DNA of 64,000 nucleotides from positions 153,320 through 217,319 of the forward strand of contig JAJRSD010000061.1 of NCBI GenBank assembly GCA_024278975.1. The letters run 5' to 3'. This document shows positions 9,118 through 35,759 of this stretch, piece after piece; the stretch's first letter is position 1; the number at the start of each line of letters is the position of its first letter. The notes beneath the pieces are model-generated. The model was not told where the DNA came from. It searched no databases and saw only the letters and a program-made list of their open reading frames with translations. The stretch is from Bacteroidota bacterium. Lineage in GTDB: Bacteria > Bacteroidota > Bacteroidia > Bacteroidales > Prolixibacteraceae. Position numbers and translations under genes: made by a program.

Positions 9118-10287
9118 ATGGAAATGGATATTCGCCATTATTTCGATAAGGTAGATTTTACCCGATTTTCTGAAACAGTTCAATCTAACTGGAAATATTT
9201 AATCGGTTCTTCAATAGAGAAACGAACATTATCTGTTACACCGCAAAATATCCAAAAACTCGATGCTGTAATTATTGGTGCTCCTTTCGATAGTAGAAAA
9301 GCAGATACTAATTTGTCTGATGCTCCCCATAAAATTCGTAAAGAGTTGTATCAGCTCACAAAAATTGATACGAAATTAAATATTGCCGATTTTGGTAATT
9401 TAAAACCTGCAAGCAGTGTAAAAGGTAATTATCATGCTATTCGCGATATTGTTGAATTTTGTAACGAGCTGGAAATAGTTACGATAATAATTGGAGGCAG
9501 TCAGGATTTAAGTACCGGTATTTGCGAGGCATTTAAAAGTAACAGAATGTTTTCGTTTTCAACCATCGATACTTTTTTGGATGTAAAGAAAAGTAAGGAG
9601 GCGTTTAACTCAACAAATTATTTATCACGGATTTTTACTTCTTTACCAAATCTTTTTCAGTTTAGTTTAATCGGTTTTCAAAGTCATTATATTGCTCCTG
9701 AATATTTTTCAAAAACCAAAGGTATTAACAATAATATTCGGTTGGGACGTTTAAGAGACGATATTTCTGAGGCGGAACCTGTTTTGCGAAATACCGATGT
9801 TCTCTCTTTCGATATAGGAGCAGTTAAATACTCAGAAGCACCCGGAGGATGTAGTTTTACACCCAACGGATTACGCAGCGAAGAGGCTTGTCAGTTGGCA
9901 AAATATGCAGGGTTGAGCGATCGGTTAAAAGTATTTGGACTGTTTGAATACAGTTCGGAAAAAGATCAGCACAATTTAACAGCTAAACTTTCGGCACAAA
10001 TTGTTTGGTATTTTATTGAAGGATTTAAAAAACGTCGAAATAATAAGCCAAACGAAAACGACCAGAATATTATGTACCAGGTTGAAGTGAAGAATTTAGA
10101 TAAGCCTTTGGTTTTCTATAAAAATGTCGAAAATAATCAATGGTGGATGCAAATAATTGCTTCCGACGAAAAATCAATATATTTTGCTTGTACCGAAAAG
10201 GAATACAATCAGGCATCGAACAACGAAATTCCTGAATTATGGCTTAATTACATTCAGAAATTAGATGAAATAAGTATGGATAATTAA
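9118..10287 (+). CDS. Arginase/formiminoglutamase-fold protein with degenerate metal site
   Basis: IIGAP..IRKELY..DFGN..IIIGGSQD..IDTFLD..SFDIGAV..PNGL; several Mn ligands replaced; extra C-terminal domain. Confidence 0.75.
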   Translation: MEMDIRHYFDKVDFTRFSETVQSNWKYLIGSSIEKRTLSVTPQNIQKLDAVIIGAPFDSRKADTNLSDAPHKIRKELYQLTKIDTKLNIADFGNLKPASSVKGNYHAIRDIVEFCNELEIVTIIIGGSQDLSTGICEAFKSNRMFSFSTIDTFLDVKKSKEAFNSTNYLSRIFTSLPNLFQFSLIGFQSHYIAPEYFSKTKGINNNIRLGRLRDDISEAEPVLRNTDVLSFDIGAVKYSEAPGGCSFTPNGLRSEEACQLAKYAGLSDRLKVFGLFEYSSEKDQHNLTAKLSAQIVWYFIEGFKKRRNNKPNENDQNIMYQVEVKNLDKPLVFYKNVENNQWWMQIIASDEKSIYFACTEKEYNQASNNEIPELWLNYIQKLDEISMDN

Positions 10288-30187: not shown

Positions 30188-30239
30188 ACCGTTCGTTGTA
30201 AAATACAGTCCATCCATTTGTTAAAATCAACCGTTCACT
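30188..30239 (+). promoter_or_regulatory. Triple direct repeat with 21-bp period (LytTR-type operator) upstream of the LytTR gene
   Basis: ACCGTTCGTT (30188), TCCATCCATT (30209), ACCGTTCACT (30230); TACCTTTG -7 element at 30270-30277. Confidence 0.65.
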
Positions 30240-30282
30240 CAGTAATTGAAGGAAATATTATATAAATTATACCTTTGCTAGT

Positions 30283-31077
30283 ATGAGACGTTATAATGCC
30301 ATAATAATTGATGATGAGATTAATTTACAACAAACGCTTGAGATTCTTATTCATCAAAATTGTCCCGAAATTCAATTATGTGGCAAAGCAAATTCTGCTA
30401 AAGCCGGGAGACAACTTTTAAGGAATAACAAGGTAGATTTAATTTTTCTGGATATTTCGATGCCAATAGAAAGTGGATTCGATTTTATCGCTTCAATTCC
30501 GAAAGAAAATTATTCGGTTATTTTTACAACTGCGTACGAAGAGTACGCCCTAAAAGCAATAAAAGCAAATGCAATAGATTATTTGTTAAAGCCAATAAAC
30601 CCGGTGGAGTTGCAAGATGCAGTTATAAAAGCCATATCTCTTATTAATTTACGAAGTCAGAAAGAAGACTTACAAAAAATTTACAACGAATCGCTTAATA
30701 ATCTGACGCAACAAATACAAAGTGGCAATCAGCAAATATCCAAAATTACGGTTGTTGAAAAACTTGGATTCCGTATTGTTGAGCTAAATTCAATTAGATA
30801 TTTTGAGGCAGATGGTAACTATACGATTATACATCTATCGGGATTTGAGAAAATTGTTTCGAGCAAATGGTTGGGCGAATACGAGAAGATTTTAGACCCT
30901 GAAATATTTTTTAGAATACATAAGTCTACAATTATTAACTTGGATTTTTTAAAAGGATTTTCAAGCTACCAGGGATATTTTGTTATCTTAGACGACAATA
31001 CTAAACTACCAATTTCGCGAAGGCGATTTAATGAATTCAAAGACGTGGTTGGGACGCTCTCAAAATCTATTGATTAG
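30283..31077 (+). CDS. LytTR-family response regulator
   Basis: REC domain (IIDDE, FLDISMP, FTTAY, YLLKP) plus LytTR domain (FEADGNYT, FFRIHKSTIIN, LPISRRR). Confidence 0.92.
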   Translation: MRRYNAIIIDDEINLQQTLEILIHQNCPEIQLCGKANSAKAGRQLLRNNKVDLIFLDISMPIESGFDFIASIPKENYSVIFTTAYEEYALKAIKANAIDYLLKPINPVELQDAVIKAISLINLRSQKEDLQKIYNESLNNLTQQIQSGNQQISKITVVEKLGFRIVELNSIRYFEADGNYTIIHLSGFEKIVSSKWLGEYEKILDPEIFFRIHKSTIINLDFLKGFSSYQGYFVILDDNTKLPISRRRFNEFKDVVGTLSKSID

Positions 31078-33983
31078 TGAAAATTTACTACATAATAATT
31101 TCTTTTCTAGTTTTGTCGCTCCAAACTGTGGTAGCACAAAATCCGTTTATTACAAACTATACAATTGCCGATGGTTTGCCGTCGAATAAAATATACTGTT
31201 CTTTTTTAGACAAAAGTGGCTTTATGTGGTTTGGAACCGATGTTGGCGTAGTTAGGTTTGATGGAAGCAACTTTGTAAACTATACAAAAGAGGATGGTCT
31301 TAGTGGCGATTTAGTAGTGAGGATGAAAGAAGATTTTGAAGGAAGACTGTGGTTCTTAAACCTAAATGGAACAATTAATTATTTTTATGAGAATACAATA
31401 TTCAATGCAATAAATGCTCCATTTTTAGGTGAACTGAAAACCAATGTTTTTATTCATGATTTTTTTCAGGACGAAGATTCTACATTGTATTTTTATAACT
31501 CGGTATCAGAAGTATTTGTGGTAAAAAATAATGAACTGATTGATTACCGAAATTTCAATTTGAACAATAGAAATGACATTGCGCTATACTATTTTTCTAA
31601 AACATTAGATGATAATTTTCGATTGTGGACCGCACCTGGTATATATGAATTTAATGAATTTGATGATGCAATAAAGCTTCATAAACATTCATTTCTGTCA
31701 CAAAAAGTCTTAAGAAAAAATGAAAATGAAACTTATGTATTGGGGCAATTCGGATATTTAAATTTATTTAATGGGTCAAAGATTTACGAAAAAAATATCC
31801 TTAAATTAGAAACTCAACTTATTCATTCTATCCTTGAAGATGAAGATGGTTTTATGTGGATTTCGACATTCGACAAAGGAATTTATTGTTATAAAGGCGA
31901 TAGTGTTGTTTTACATTTCGATATTCCTAAAACTCAGAATTTAATAATTGATAATGAAAATAATATTTGGGTAGTTTCAAATGTCGATGGAATATATAAA
32001 ATAAGCAGAGATATTCTTAAATATAAGTTCCTTGGCAAACACGAATTTAGTGGAGAAGGAATTACCGATTTAGCCTTTTCAAATCAAGAAGGAATTTGGG
32101 CAACTAATGGCAAATCATTATATTATATACTCGATAATCAAAGTTCATATCCGCCAGTTGTACTTAGAGGAAGCATTATTGATAATATACACCAATTAAA
32201 AAATAATACAATTATTTTAAGTGGAACAAGTACAAATTTGTTTATTATTGAAAATGTAAATGTAAAAAGTAGTACAATAGATTACAATATTATAGGGGGA
32301 CTCAATTTCAGGGTAAATAGAGTTGCTATTGATTCAAGTGAAGAGTTTCTATATTCAAATATTAGCGATAAATTGTTTGTTACTGAATTAAAAAGACCAT
32401 ATAGAACAAGAACCAAAAATATAAATAGAGGGCGGATAAACAATATATTCTTCAACAGAAAAGATAACCTAATAATTAATGCTGCAAATAATTATTGCTA
32501 CACAGACTCGTTAAAATTTGCCCAGCTATATAAATTACTCGAAGGACAAATTATTTCGTCGCATATAGTTATTAATAACGAGAACGAGCTAATTAACGTA
32601 AAGAGGAATAAGCTATATTTGTTAAACAACGAAAAATTATACGATTTAACAAAACAGTTTAAATCTCAAATAGATTATCGAATTAAAGATATGATATACA
32701 ATGGCTCAATCCTGTTCTTTTTCACCATAAAAACTGTCTATTTTATTTCCAATCCATTAAAAATAATATCGGGTGAACCGCTTGAGCTAAACCGCTTAAA
32801 TATTGAGTTTAATAATATAAACGATCTGTATTGTCAGGACAGTACCCTTTTTGTTGCTTCTGATGATGGTATTACCTTTATTCCGGTTAAAGAGTGTGTA
32901 AACATCGGAGTTCACCCTCCAAAACCCTATTTTTACAGGGTATCTCTTGATGATGAGAATTATGATATTTCTTCGGGAATTGTTGAGTTTAAAAGCCGGA
33001 AGAGATTAAGCATTGAATTTTCGAGCTTAAATTTCTCTTCAATTCCCTCAAACTACTCGTATATGCTGGAGGGTATTGACAATAACTGGATAAATGGAAA
33101 TGAAAAAAGAGTAGTGTATTTAAATCTTGAGCCTGGCAATTATTCCTTCAAATTAAAATCTCGGACAAACAGAGAAGAGTACAGCAATGTTATTGAGTTG
33201 CCCGTTATTGTTAAACCAACAATTTTCCAGCGTATAATTACTAAAGTAATACTTGTTTTATTATTACTCCTTTTGATATCTTTAATTATCCACTTCAGAT
33301 ATCAACGAAAAATTAAACAAAAAGAGACCGAGCATTTACTTATAACGCTTGAAAACAAGGCTTTACAGTCGATGATGAATCCACACTTTATTTTTAACGC
33401 ACTTGGTTCAATTCAAGGGTTTTTACTGCAAAACAGGTCTGTTGAAGCTGGAACTTATTTGTCTCAGTTTGCCCGGTTAATAAGGCAAAATATGAACTCG
33501 CTAAAATCAAACTTTATTTGTATTGATGACGAGGTTGATCGACTGAGAAATTATATTGAACTAGAAAGATTGCGGATGAACGATAAATTCACATATCAGA
33601 TAGAAGTTGATGAGCAAATCGACAGTTATGAAGTGTGTATCCCATCAATGGTTGTTCAACCTTTTGTTGAAAACGCAATATGGCATGGTATTTCTTCGAT
33701 TGATGAAGGAGGACTGATTAAAATTATTTTTAATGGCATTGATGAAAATAGTATTGAGGTTTTAGTAGAAGATAATGGTATTGGTATTAAAGACACTGAA
33801 ACATTTTCTGAATCGGGGAGTGGATTAAATATGGGAATTGCCTTAACCAAAAAAAGACTAAAATTAATTGGCGACCGACTGGGTATTAAGTCTGAAGTAT
33901 CATCAAAAAATCTTAATCCGGGAACAATTCAGACGGGAACTCAAATTAGAATTATAATTCCAATTGTTGATGATACCATATAA
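31077..33983 (+). CDS. LytS-type sensor histidine kinase with periplasmic beta-propeller and Y_Y_Y domain
   Basis: Reg_prop repeats (DGLPSN, MWFGTDVG), YSYMLEG..W, TM, LQSMMNPHFIFNAL, QPFVENAIWHG, EDNGIG. Confidence 0.9.
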   Translation: MKIYYIIISFLVLSLQTVVAQNPFITNYTIADGLPSNKIYCSFLDKSGFMWFGTDVGVVRFDGSNFVNYTKEDGLSGDLVVRMKEDFEGRLWFLNLNGTINYFYENTIFNAINAPFLGELKTNVFIHDFFQDEDSTLYFYNSVSEVFVVKNNELIDYRNFNLNNRNDIALYYFSKTLDDNFRLWTAPGIYEFNEFDDAIKLHKHSFLSQKVLRKNENETYVLGQFGYLNLFNGSKIYEKNILKLETQLIHSILEDEDGFMWISTFDKGIYCYKGDSVVLHFDIPKTQNLIIDNENNIWVVSNVDGIYKISRDILKYKFLGKHEFSGEGITDLAFSNQEGIWATNGKSLYYILDNQSSYPPVVLRGSIIDNIHQLKNNTIILSGTSTNLFIIENVNVKSSTIDYNIIGGLNFRVNRVAIDSSEEFLYSNISDKLFVTELKRPYRTRTKNINRGRINNIFFNRKDNLIINAANNYCYTDSLKFAQLYKLLEGQIISSHIVINNENELINVKRNKLYLLNNEKLYDLTKQFKSQIDYRIKDMIYNGSILFFFTIKTVYFISNPLKIISGEPLELNRLNIEFNNINDLYCQDSTLFVASDDGITFIPVKECVNIGVHPPKPYFYRVSLDDENYDISSGIVEFKSRKRLSIEFSSLNFSSIPSNYSYMLEGIDNNWINGNEKRVVYLNLEPGNYSFKLKSRTNREEYSNVIELPVIVKPTIFQRIITKVILVLLLLLLISLIIHFRYQRKIKQKETEHLLITLENKALQSMMNPHFIFNALGSIQGFLLQNRSVEAGTYLSQFARLIRQNMNSLKSNFICIDDEVDRLRNYIELERLRMNDKFTYQIEVDEQIDSYEVCIPSMVVQPFVENAIWHGISSIDEGGLIKIIFNGIDENSIEVLVEDNGIGIKDTETFSESGSGLNMGIALTKKRLKLIGDRLGIKSEVSSKNLNPGTIQTGTQIRIIIPIVDDTI

Positions 33984-34010
33984 TTTGCTGAATTTAAAGT
34001 ATCCACGAAA

Positions 34011-34062
34011 ACCGTTTACTAAATAAAAGTTACCACTTATACAAAAATCTTTACCATTCAAT
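34011..34062 (+). promoter_or_regulatory. Second triple direct repeat with 21-bp period downstream of the kinase
   Basis: ACCGTTTACT (34011), ACCACTTATA (34032), ACCATTCAAT (34053); near-consensus -7 TATCATTG at 34094-34101. Confidence 0.65.
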
Positions 34063-34347
34063 AATATTAAAAAAATGAGATATATTTTCTTCTTATCATT
34101 GCTCTCATAAGTAAGTTCTTTGTTTGCTGTTTTACTCTGATTAGAAAATGACTTTTTTATTAGTTGGATATTAAGATATATTTCCCCAATAATTTAGTTC
34201 CTAATATTTGTGCTTAACTTTCAAACAAGTCTCAACTGGTTGCTGTTTCCATATTTTTCGTCCTCCTTTAAAAAAATAGAAAATAATAAATGGTAATTAA
34301 AAGCAAATAAACACGCACAGCACAGATAAAGGAAATTTGAGATTCTC

Positions 34348-34382
34348 AAGGCCGGTTTCATAACGAAACCGGCTTTTTATTT
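34348..34382 (+). terminator. Strong Rho-independent terminator with no ORF upstream
   Basis: GCCGGTTTC-ATAAC-GAAACCGGC-TTTTT. Confidence 0.75.
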
Positions 34383-34502
34383 GCCTTAACGGAAGGGGAA
34401 GGGGCGAAGCAAAAGGGTAAAAGCAAAATCCCGAAACGTAACACCAAATTTTCATCTTTGTTAAAGTTTTGTACATTTGAGATGTAAGAACAAAAATAAT
34501 TT

Positions 34503-35759
34503 GTGACTCAAATTCAAATAAATAAGAAAAAAATCATCAACGACCCTGTTTTTGGTTTTATTAATCTACAATCCGAATTAATTTTCGATTTAGTTGAACA
34601 CCCAATATTTCAACGACTTAGAAGAATTAAGCAGTTAGGATTATCGTATTTAGTATTTCCCGGTGCTAATCATTCTCGTTTTGAACATGCCATTGGAGCA
34701 AGTCATTTAATGAGGCAAGCCATTTCTGTTTTGCGGTTAAAAAATACTGAGATTTCGGATGAAGAGGCGGAAGCAGTTACTGTTGCAATTTTATTGCACG
34801 ATATTGGACACGCTCCATTTTCGCATGTACTCGAAAATACTTTGGTTGAAATTTCGCACGAAGAAATCTCGCTACTACTAATGAATGAATTGAACGAACA
34901 GTTTAGCGGCAAGTTAGATTTAGCCATTAAAATATTTACGAATAAATATAAAAAGCAATTTTTGCACCAACTGGTATCCAGCCAATTAGATATGGACAGG
35001 CTGGATTATTTAAGCCGCGACAGTTTTTTTACCGGCGTGGCAGAAGGAACTGTTGGAGTTGAACGTATTATTAAAATGCTAAATGTTCGGAACGACCAAC
35101 TTGTGGTTGATATAAAAGGAATTTATTCAATCGAAAAATTCCTTATCTCGCGACGATTAATGTACTGGCAGGTTTATCTGCACAAAACAGTTGTTTCGGC
35201 AGAATATCTTTTAATTAATGTTTTAAAGCGGGCAAAAGAATTGGTTGCAGCAGGCTCTCCCGTTTTTGCGACTCCAACTCTCACTATTTTCATGAAAAAC
35301 AGTTTTTCATCCGACAATTTCAAAAAAAATATTTTAATTGATGGTATAAATATTCTTGACTGGTACTCGTTACTTGATGACAACGATATTTTAATTTCGG
35401 TAAAAGAGTGGCAAAATAATGCTGATATGACACTCTCCACTTTGGCTAAGAATTTAATAAATAGAAGATTATTTAAAACTACACTGCAAACAAAACCGGT
35501 TTCGAAATTGTTAACAAAAGAAATTATAGAGAAAATAACGCTGCAAATAACAAATGATAAAACATTATCAGGATATTTTTTAATGACAGGTGAGGTTACA
35601 AACAGTGCATACAACTACCACAACGAGAATATTATGGTATTAGATAAAAACGAAAAATTAACAGATATCCGTAAAGCATCGGATATTGATTTGTCGGTAT
35701 TTACCAAAATAGTTCGTAAGTATTATTTGTGTTATCCGAAGGAATTGGACATTAATTAG
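34503..35759 (+). CDS. HD-domain phosphohydrolase (dNTP triphosphohydrolase-like)
   Basis: INDPVFG, QRLRRIKQLG, HSRFEH, LLHDIGH, LDMDRLDY, RRLMYWQVYLHK. Confidence 0.88.
   Translation: MTQIQINKKKIINDPVFGFINLQSELIFDLVEHPIFQRLRRIKQLGLSYLVFPGANHSRFEHAIGASHLMRQAISVLRLKNTEISDEEAEAVTVAILLHDIGHAPFSHVLENTLVEISHEEISLLLMNELNEQFSGKLDLAIKIFTNKYKKQFLHQLVSSQLDMDRLDYLSRDSFFTGVAEGTVGVERIIKMLNVRNDQLVVDIKGIYSIEKFLISRRLMYWQVYLHKTVVSAEYLLINVLKRAKELVAAGSPVFATPTLTIFMKNSFSSDNFKKNILIDGINILDWYSLLDDNDILISVKEWQNNADMTLSTLAKNLINRRLFKTTLQTKPVSKLLTKEIIEKITLQITNDKTLSGYFLMTGEVTNSAYNYHNENIMVLDKNEKLTDIRKASDIDLSVFTKIVRKYYLCYPKELDIN

Follow-up and report, generated by a model that had tools for sequence, protein, structure and literature searches.

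Through which product does a LytTR two-component system act if its kinase gene is followed by several hundred bases without any long open reading frame (ORF)? This question is raised by a locus in a stretch of 64,000 nucleotides (nt) from a Bacteroidota bacterium of the Prolixibacteraceae (assembly GCA_024278975.1, contig JAJRSD010000061.1, positions 153,320 to 217,319), which we refer to as the window and whose numbering is used throughout. The locus consists of two overlapping genes on the + strand, encoding a response regulator with a LytTR DNA-binding domain and a sensor histidine kinase, and of 519 bases between the stop codon of the kinase gene and the next + strand gene, an HD-domain gene starting at 34503 and followed by lpxD. 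An earlier note, made from the letters alone, had suggested that the output of the system may be a small RNA or a micropeptide, or that its target gene had been deleted. Based on the analysis presented here, we consider it probable that the segment from about 34105 to 34382 (+ strand) is the gene of a structured non-coding small RNA of approximately 270 nt, predicted to be activated by the LytTR regulator of its own locus. The best reading of the data is that of a new small RNA family constituting the dedicated output of this two-component system.

Three direct repeats with a period of 21 base pairs (bp) stand just after the kinase gene, and a second set of the same period is located upstream of the regulator gene. 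Each set is followed by a –7 promoter box, beginning 41 nt after the start of the last repeat in the former and 40 nt in the latter case. This mirrored arrangement, as well as a strong + strand terminator at the end of the ORF-less region, had been described in the earlier note, and all of these elements were recovered, those 3' of the kinase gene at the positions it had given; its assignment of the LytTR gene was upheld by Pfam. Operators of the AgrA type comprise at least two imperfect direct repeats of ~9 bp with a spacing of ~12 bp, and the three repeats found here follow each other at ~21 bp from start to start. The LytTR gene lies close by and carries a triple repeat and a –7 box at its own promoter, an arrangement kept in its orthologs. 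By this sequence logic, the repeats are supported as a LytTR (AgrA-type) operator and as the putative binding site of the regulator. The –7 element TAnnTTTG is the promoter element of the Bacteroides/Flavobacterium sigma-A. Matching it perfectly, the box of the operon ends 5 nt before the ATG of the regulator gene at 30283, so that the regulator-kinase mRNA is probably leaderless. The box of the predicted small RNA promoter differs at position 5, which is A or C (window TATCATTG, consensus of the orthologs TAATATTG) and T in TAnnTTTG; transcription is predicted to start near 34105–34108.

Allowing up to three mismatches, a degenerate pattern of the triple repeat matched the 64-kb window only twice, at the 34011 and 30188 sites, compared with 0.19 matches in shuffled sequences. 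For the genome as a whole, a position-weight matrix was derived from 90 half-sites located 3' of the kinase gene in orthologous loci and applied as a triple site of 21-bp period to both strands of the entire 4.65-Mb assembly (9.3 million positions). The 34011 site reached 35.4 bits and the 30188 site, which was absent from the training set, 20.2 bits, followed by the next best position with 15.8 bits. Genome-wide, a –7 box at the right distance (40–41 nt) was found only after these two sites. Consequently, the predicted direct regulon comprises two promoters, that of the operon itself and that of the small RNA, and with no third site in the genome the small RNA would be the sole direct output of the system besides itself. 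The genome carries 13 LytTR-domain genes in total, representing a large family of mostly uncharacterised regulators. On another contig (C96, around position 9215 of the – strand), we observed a pair of near-perfect repeats of 21-bp period, TTACCGTTTAATA and CTACCGTTTAATA, followed 40 nt on by CAACTTTG. This double repeat precedes the gene of a 289-amino acid (aa) secreted protein, with another LytTR regulator 3.7 kb away. It was rejected as a third member of the regulon and assigned to the nearby paralogous regulator, the arrangement resembling a paralogous system whose output is a protein.

A BLAST search of the intergenic DNA against 40 relatives returned nothing but the start of the HD-domain gene. 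As the RNA is too diverged for a DNA search, it was approached via orthologs of the kinase. These were found in 39 of the 81 genomes of the genus, which is probably Draconibacterium, with 44–73% identity, and 31 orthologous loci were read. In 30 of them, a triple repeat of 21-bp period occurs 6–34 nt after the kinase stop codon, and TAnnnTTG, again in 30 of 31, begins exactly 41 nt after the start of the last repeat. An ORF-less stretch of 235–290 nt follows and leads into an intrinsic terminator, present in 30 of the 31 units and showing compensatory changes in its stem. Operator and box of the operon are kept in the orthologs as well, the last repeat being separated from the ATG by 52–55 nt in 31 of 32 loci scanned. 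The conserved cassette is thus composed of operator, regulator gene, kinase gene, operator, ORF-less unit, and terminator. The gene located 3' of it varies, encoding an AMP-ligase-like protein in most species, an extracytoplasmic function (ECF) sigma/anti-sigma pair in others, and the HD-domain protein with lpxD in the window. In the 31st locus (L116 of genome G056), ~290 nt of unrelated DNA lie between the kinase stop codon and the small RNA operator, and in the operator preceding the operon the middle repeat is degenerate.

This fixed geometry bears on the origin of the transcript. In the window, the terminator at 34348–34382 is the sole terminator-like site within 33800–34700, and none was found from the kinase stop at 33983 to 34348. 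The terminator must therefore end the operon transcript too, and the RNA sequence is at the same time the 3' end of this transcript. Accordingly, the unit could be conceived as a long 3' untranslated region (UTR) of the regulator-kinase operon without any promoter of its own, in which the repeats would serve as a roadblock or as a second autoregulatory site and a small RNA would arise by processing. Operon transcripts have to traverse the region in any case, and the –7 box deviating from the consensus is in line with this explanation. However, the conserved TAnnnTTG at its constant distance mirrors the 40-nt geometry of the operon promoter, and such an invariant spacing to a promoter element would be difficult to account for if no promoter were at work. 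We consider a UTR devoid of its own promoter unlikely, while noting that a dedicated promoter and processing from the operon transcript can coexist.

We inspected the coding potential of the units. In 29 distinct units, the longest ORF starting with ATG, GTG, or TTG encodes 5–48 aa, at differing positions and with unrelated sequences. Within the window, a TTG ORF of 23 aa (34208–34279), a GTG ORF of 28 aa (34210–34296), and an ATG ORF of 8 aa are present; the statement of the earlier note that no ORF exceeds about 11 codons holds for ATG starts and fails for the other two. Neither the TTG nor the GTG ORF is conserved in the closest relatives, the two closest having longest ORFs of 12 and 10 aa that are unrelated to those of the window. 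No ATG ORF of at least six codons exists in 8 of the 23 members checked. The RNAs form three subgroups that are barely alignable with one another, and in alignments within the subgroups 73 of 90 distinct indels are not multiples of three. The unit is non-coding. Control of a neighbouring peptide gene is common among LytTR systems, as exemplified by the agrD, comC, and plnA systems under LytTR regulators in Firmicutes, which brings up the possibility that the transcript serves as the mRNA of a peptide pheromone or of another very small protein. Besides this precedent, one subgroup of six species retains an ATG within CACCATGGA opening ORFs of 8–21 aa, and the 8-aa ATG and 28-aa GTG ORFs of the window point in the same direction. 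Nevertheless, no short ORF of the peptide-pheromone precursor kind (agrD/comC) is shared across the subgroups, the indels mostly break the frame, and it is base-paired helices that are conserved, not codons. A peptide product is hence very unlikely, and the micropeptide considered in the earlier note is not borne out.

The comparison with relatives also speaks to the idea that the region is a deletion scar or the decayed remnant of a protein-coding target gene. In distant Bacteroidales homologues (loci L034 and L040), the same repeats and box precede genes of secreted proteins, so that a protein output is an ancestral possibility. The earlier note had proposed to compare the interval in close relatives, where an intact gene would mark it as a scar. 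None of the 31 orthologous loci read holds such a gene; instead, repeats, box, ORF-less unit, and terminator are retained. Across 31 species with kinase identities of 44–73%, all units are ORF-less, of constant length, and equipped with the motifs, the covarying helices, and the terminator, a state in which a neutral remnant would not have remained. A stop-riddled hydrophobic frame from ATG 34075, which the note regarded as fitting deletion or decay, starts upstream of the –7 box and thus falls outside the predicted transcript. The lost-gene explanation is therefore refuted by the note's own yardstick, and we regard it as extremely improbable.

Returning to the non-coding RNA, four elements are common to all three subgroups: GUUCUU(U) close to the 5' end, a first motif rich in C (UUCCCCAA, ACCCCAAA, or CUCCUCACA), another C/U-rich stretch, and the terminator. 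Both C-rich motifs of the window are predicted to be unpaired, with probabilities of 0.70 and 0.71 versus a mean of 0.50 for the whole RNA. As a 5' seed, GUUCUUU was rejected as the main candidate, being predicted as mostly paired (0.30). Two helices, designated P1 and P3, recur in the minimum free energy (MFE) folds of single, poorly alignable sequences from all subgroups. P1 is a long-range helix formed by the segment just 3' of the first C-rich motif and the segment just 5' of the terminator; P3 lies inside the P1 domain and holds the second C-rich stretch in its large loop. The two strands of P1 (5' strand/3' strand) read UUCCU..UAUUUGUGCU/AGCACAGAUA.AGGAA in the window, UUUCUGUAC/GUACAGAAA in locus L010, UUAUCCGUGC/GCACGGAUAA in L115, CCUGUGCA/UGUACGGG in L112, AGUUCU..CUGUGC/GCACAG..AGAACU in one subgroup, and UUCCUUGUU/AACAAGGAA in the largest subgroup.

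In place of a plain MAFFT alignment combined with RNAalifold, we relied on folds of each sequence, on a test of duplex versus shuffle, and on covariance-model alignment. RNAalifold recovered P1 unaided in two subgroups, and the duplex energy of P1 was better than that of shuffled partners (p < 0.05) in 21 of 29 sequences, with a mean z of –2.3. A first covariance model, built from the window together with the two relatives closest to it and comprising P1 and P3, placed members from each of the three subgroups where expected, the distant ones scoring weakly. In the resulting alignment, standard pairs occupied 86.7% of the cells, compared with 69% after column shuffling and 42–46% with partners slid by 1–3 columns, and 20 of 27 pairs showed changes on both sides, these counts being biased upward by the fitting of the alignment to the structure. 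As modeled in this way, P1 and P3 are maintained by compensatory base changes. Taken together with the ORF-less unit of every ortholog read and the conserved motifs and length, this gives strong support to the small RNA among the outputs that the earlier note had considered.

A second covariance model was established from ten members and used to determine the distribution of the RNA. It matched 14 of the 81 genus genomes, all of them kinase-bearing and each with a single copy. Thirteen of these matches are located just 3' of the kinase gene; the 14th is found where another contig begins, in a fragmented assembly whose kinase contig breaks off 75 nt beyond the stop codon. No match was obtained in the 42 kinase-less genomes of the genus or in 300 other genomes sampled from the order (209 genera). 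As the model is insensitive, finding 14 of the 39 known loci, absence outside the genus means "not detectably similar". Searching the window against Rfam at a permissive E-value gave only terminator-like matches far below the gathering scores, and nothing but a tRNA was found in 15 related loci at gathering thresholds; there was no match to the covariance model of RNAIII (RF00503) or of any other Rfam family.

The strict linkage to the kinase also speaks against a cis-acting leader. A structured RNA with a terminator upstream of a co-oriented gene is what one would expect of a riboswitch or attenuator, governing in this case read-through into the HD-domain gene and the lpxD operon. However, the downstream gene changes between species and the RNA always stays with the kinase, the distance from the terminator to the next start codon amounts to 100–250 nt, and no Rfam riboswitch or leader was detected at threshold. 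Moreover, a consensus –7 box, TACATTTG, is located at 34472–34479, 24 nt upstream of the GTG start of the HD-domain gene, which therefore has its own promoter 3' of the small RNA terminator. A leader function appears highly improbable.

Several observations weigh against the interpretation as a regulator-activated small RNA family and have to be set beside the evidence given above. At the promoter, the –7 box TATCATTG is off consensus, that of the relatives (TAATATTG) being one step from TAnnTTTG, and no –33 element was identified. Given so many LytTR-domain genes in the genome, the repeats are tied to this particular regulator by adjacency and by the matching site at its own promoter. Regarding the structure, the fold of the window RNA on its own is only modestly stable (z-score –2.09; 7 of 200 shuffles fold as well), the pair counts carry the upward bias stated above, and RNAalifold, when given a plain MAFFT alignment of the subgroup to which the window RNA belongs, recovered the terminator only, owing to misalignment of the 3' strand of P1. 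Concerning the family, the second covariance model misses the majority of the known loci, and the two other subgroups are counted as members on the grounds of common position, common motifs, and weak full-length matches to the model. Finally, a search of the genome for long antisense matches to the RNA gave nothing above chance (best E 0.21) and identified no target.

On this basis, the following mode of action can be proposed for the small RNA and its regulator. The kinase would phosphorylate the LytTR regulator, which in turn would bind the triple repeats at both promoters. At the operon, the consensus –7 box probably provides basal expression combined with positive feedback (autoregulation). 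The small RNA promoter, with its slightly off-consensus Bacteroidota –7 box, would be activated once the phosphorylated regulator occupies the three direct repeats, which follow each other at a distance of two helical turns, its conserved deviation from the consensus being as expected of an activator-dependent promoter. The small RNA is predicted to end at the terminator at 34348–34382, presumably shared with the operon transcript. P1 would close a domain holding P3 and thereby display two single-stranded C/U-rich motifs, UUCCCCAA and CCUCCUU, which are the best candidates for pairing in trans with G-rich sites in target mRNAs, similar to the C-rich, unpaired UCCC loops of RNAIII. CCUCCUU in the P3 loop of the window presumably resembles an anti-Shine-Dalgarno (anti-SD) sequence; Bacteroidota otherwise hardly use SD pairing. 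As to the input, the kinase consists of a signal/anchor segment, a periplasmic Reg_prop/Y_Y_Y part of ~700 aa, a second membrane segment, and the His_kinase and HATPase_c domains. Its periplasmic part is, as we assume, similar to the glycan-sensing parts of the hybrid two-component systems of Bacteroides, and the signal is possibly a glycan, judging from this analogy. The coordinates of all elements are compiled in the table.

Features of the LytTR locus and of the predicted small RNA (positions within the window)
Feature	Position	Strand	Sequence, basis, or score
Putative operon operator, three repeats with 21-bp period	30188..30238	+	ACCGTTCGT 30188, TCCATCCAT 30209, ACCGTTCAC 30230; second-best genome score
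–7 box of the regulator-kinase operon	30270..30277	+	TACCTTTG, perfect TAnnTTTG; 40 nt after last repeat start
Response regulator, receiver and LytTR DNA-binding domains, 264 aa	30283..31077	+	Pfam Response_reg 3.6e-19, LytTR 4.8e-19
Sensor histidine kinase, 968 aa	31077..33983	+	Reg_prop/Y_Y_Y/His_kinase (PF06580)/HATPase_c
Putative small RNA operator, three repeats with 21-bp period	34011..34061	+	ACCGTTTAC 34011, ACCACTTAT 34032, ACCATTCAA 34053; best genome score, 35.4 bits
–7 box of the predicted small RNA promoter	34094..34101	+	TATCATTG; begins 41 nt after last repeat start
GTTCTTT, 5'-end motif kept in almost all members	34115..34121	+	Mean unpaired probability 0.30, mostly paired
C-rich motif 1	34181..34189	+	UUUCCCCAA; CCCCA, CUCCUCACA, or CCUCCCACA in three subgroups; unpaired probability 0.70
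P1, 5' strand (predicted)	34198..34214	+	Outer UUCCU 34198–34202, inner UAUUUGUGCU 34205–34214; MFE folds, duplex test, pair counts
Hairpin P3 (predicted)	34237..34299	+	34237–34248 pairs with 34288–34299; MFE folds, pair counts
C-rich motif 2, in large P3 loop	34259–34269	+	CGUCCUCCUUU; mean unpaired probability 0.71
P1, 3' strand (predicted)	34319..34334	+	Inner AGCACAGAUA 34319–34328, outer AGGAA 34330–34334; duplex test, pair counts
Intrinsic terminator	34348..34382	+	12-bp GC-rich stem (34348–34376), 5-nt loop, T tail; terminator search

Directly 3' of the small RNA terminator, a G-rich tract, GGAAGGGGAAGGGGCGAAGCAAAAGGG, was noticed at 34391–34417, which is partly complementary to the UUCCCC and CCUCC motifs. 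The tract does not occur in the relatives, in which the downstream DNA is different, and the partial complementarity is possibly due to chance.

Similar repeats after the kinase gene were also observed in distant homologous systems of other Bacteroidales and of Pedobacter. In three other Bacteroidales loci (L038, L041, and L043) and in Pedobacter quisquiliarum (L074), the kinase gene is followed by different short ORF-less units with clear repeats, a –7 box, and a terminator, the former three having the hairpin CUGCU-UUUACUUCCAU-AGCAG in common. Other short ORF-less stretches, with CUGCUUUACC in common, stand after homologous kinases in Prolixibacteraceae/Tangfeifania (L036, L037, L044, and L049). 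These stretches may represent further small RNA outputs of LytTR systems. In L034, L035, and L040, the repeats after the kinase gene precede genes of secreted proteins, with a clear box in L034 and L040; the products are a large Cys-rich repeat protein, a protein of 584 aa, and a third one resembling what we take to be a "major paralogous domain" of Fibrobacter. The occurrence of unrelated terminated ORF-less units behind the same repeats in other Bacteroidales and a Pedobacter implies that the design is perhaps wider than one RNA family. A far-reaching generalization would be that Bacteroidota LytTR systems with Reg_prop/Y_Y_Y sensors of the glycan type as a rule exert their effect via a private small RNA linked in cis, instead of protein-coding targets, the Draconibacterium RNA being a functional analogue of RNAIII whose anti-SD-like CCUCCUU loop selects a few G-rich or SD-bearing mRNAs. 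We put this forward as a speculation that is rather improbable.

Post-transcriptional regulation in Bacteroidota is poorly mapped. To our knowledge, members of this phylum lack Hfq and ProQ, and few of their small RNAs have a known upstream regulator. For Bacteroidota, a LytTR system with a small RNA as its sole output besides itself would be without a described precedent, and our literature searches for a LytTR-controlled small RNA in Bacteroidetes/Bacteroidota found none. The locus offers a compact and testable circuit, consisting of a sensor kinase, a LytTR regulator, and one small RNA with a predicted direct regulon of two promoters, and it is maintained in dozens of Draconibacterium species from marine and sediment habitats. 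If true, it would represent, as far as we found, the first case outside Firmicutes of a pathway leading from a LytTR regulator to a small RNA; it would also specify the motif bound by a LytTR regulator of Bacteroidota, enlarge Rfam by a new RNA family, and provide a handle on the targets of the abundant Reg_prop/Y_Y_Y-LytTR systems. In parallel, it conveys a caution for annotators, since an "orphan" two-component system without a target gene may have an RNA output.

One of the closest precedents is found in Staphylococcus aureus, in which the LytTR regulator AgrA drives its own operon promoter and that of the regulatory RNA effector RNAIII (P2/P3) via direct repeats, the AgrA-dependent promoters being suboptimal (PMC4227749). 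The locus described here shares the direct repeats of ~21-bp period at two promoters, one of its own operon and one of a regulatory RNA (here predicted), a predicted RNA promoter that is suboptimal, and predicted unpaired C-rich motifs in the RNA. In contrast to agr with its divergent promoters, those predicted here are arranged in tandem with the RNA 3' of the kinase gene, comprise three repeats instead of two, and are of the Bacteroidota –7 type. The RNA has no sequence or Rfam relationship to RNAIII and contains no embedded peptide gene such as hld, and the kinase carries a large periplasmic Reg_prop/Y_Y_Y sensor and not a peptide receptor, with no equivalents of agrB or agrD. In the VirS/VirR system of Clostridium perfringens, the regulator acts on at least two phased direct repeats to directly activate the regulatory RNAs VR-RNA (vrr), virT, and virU, which relay the signal further (PMC2838878). 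A regulator of the LytTR family and phased repeats just upstream of the promoter of a (here predicted) regulatory RNA are common to both systems. The VirR regulon includes toxin and protease genes, whereas the genome scan performed here yielded the RNA and the regulator-kinase operon only; likewise, the RNAs are unrelated, and phylum and promoter type differ.

Further parallels concern the position of the gene and the taxonomic context. DapZ and MicL of enterobacteria are 3'-UTR small RNAs with an internal promoter. Like these, the RNA shares the terminator of the upstream mRNA and has its predicted promoter at the end of the upstream gene; unlike these, the promoter follows the stop codon and is not within the coding sequence, and its predicted driver is the upstream operon's own product. 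With GibS, MasB, DonS, SrcF, and IroR, small RNAs of Bacteroides and Segatella that act without Hfq, it has the phylum and the –7 type of the (here predicted) promoter in common. It shows no sequence match to them, there being no Rfam match and no hit of the covariance model outside the genus, and the literature found does not describe any of the five as a product through which a LytTR two-component system acts. In conclusion, we judge this to be a new RNA family within a known kind of circuit, one that by analogy would work like AgrA-RNAIII and VirR-VR-RNA while being unrelated to both.

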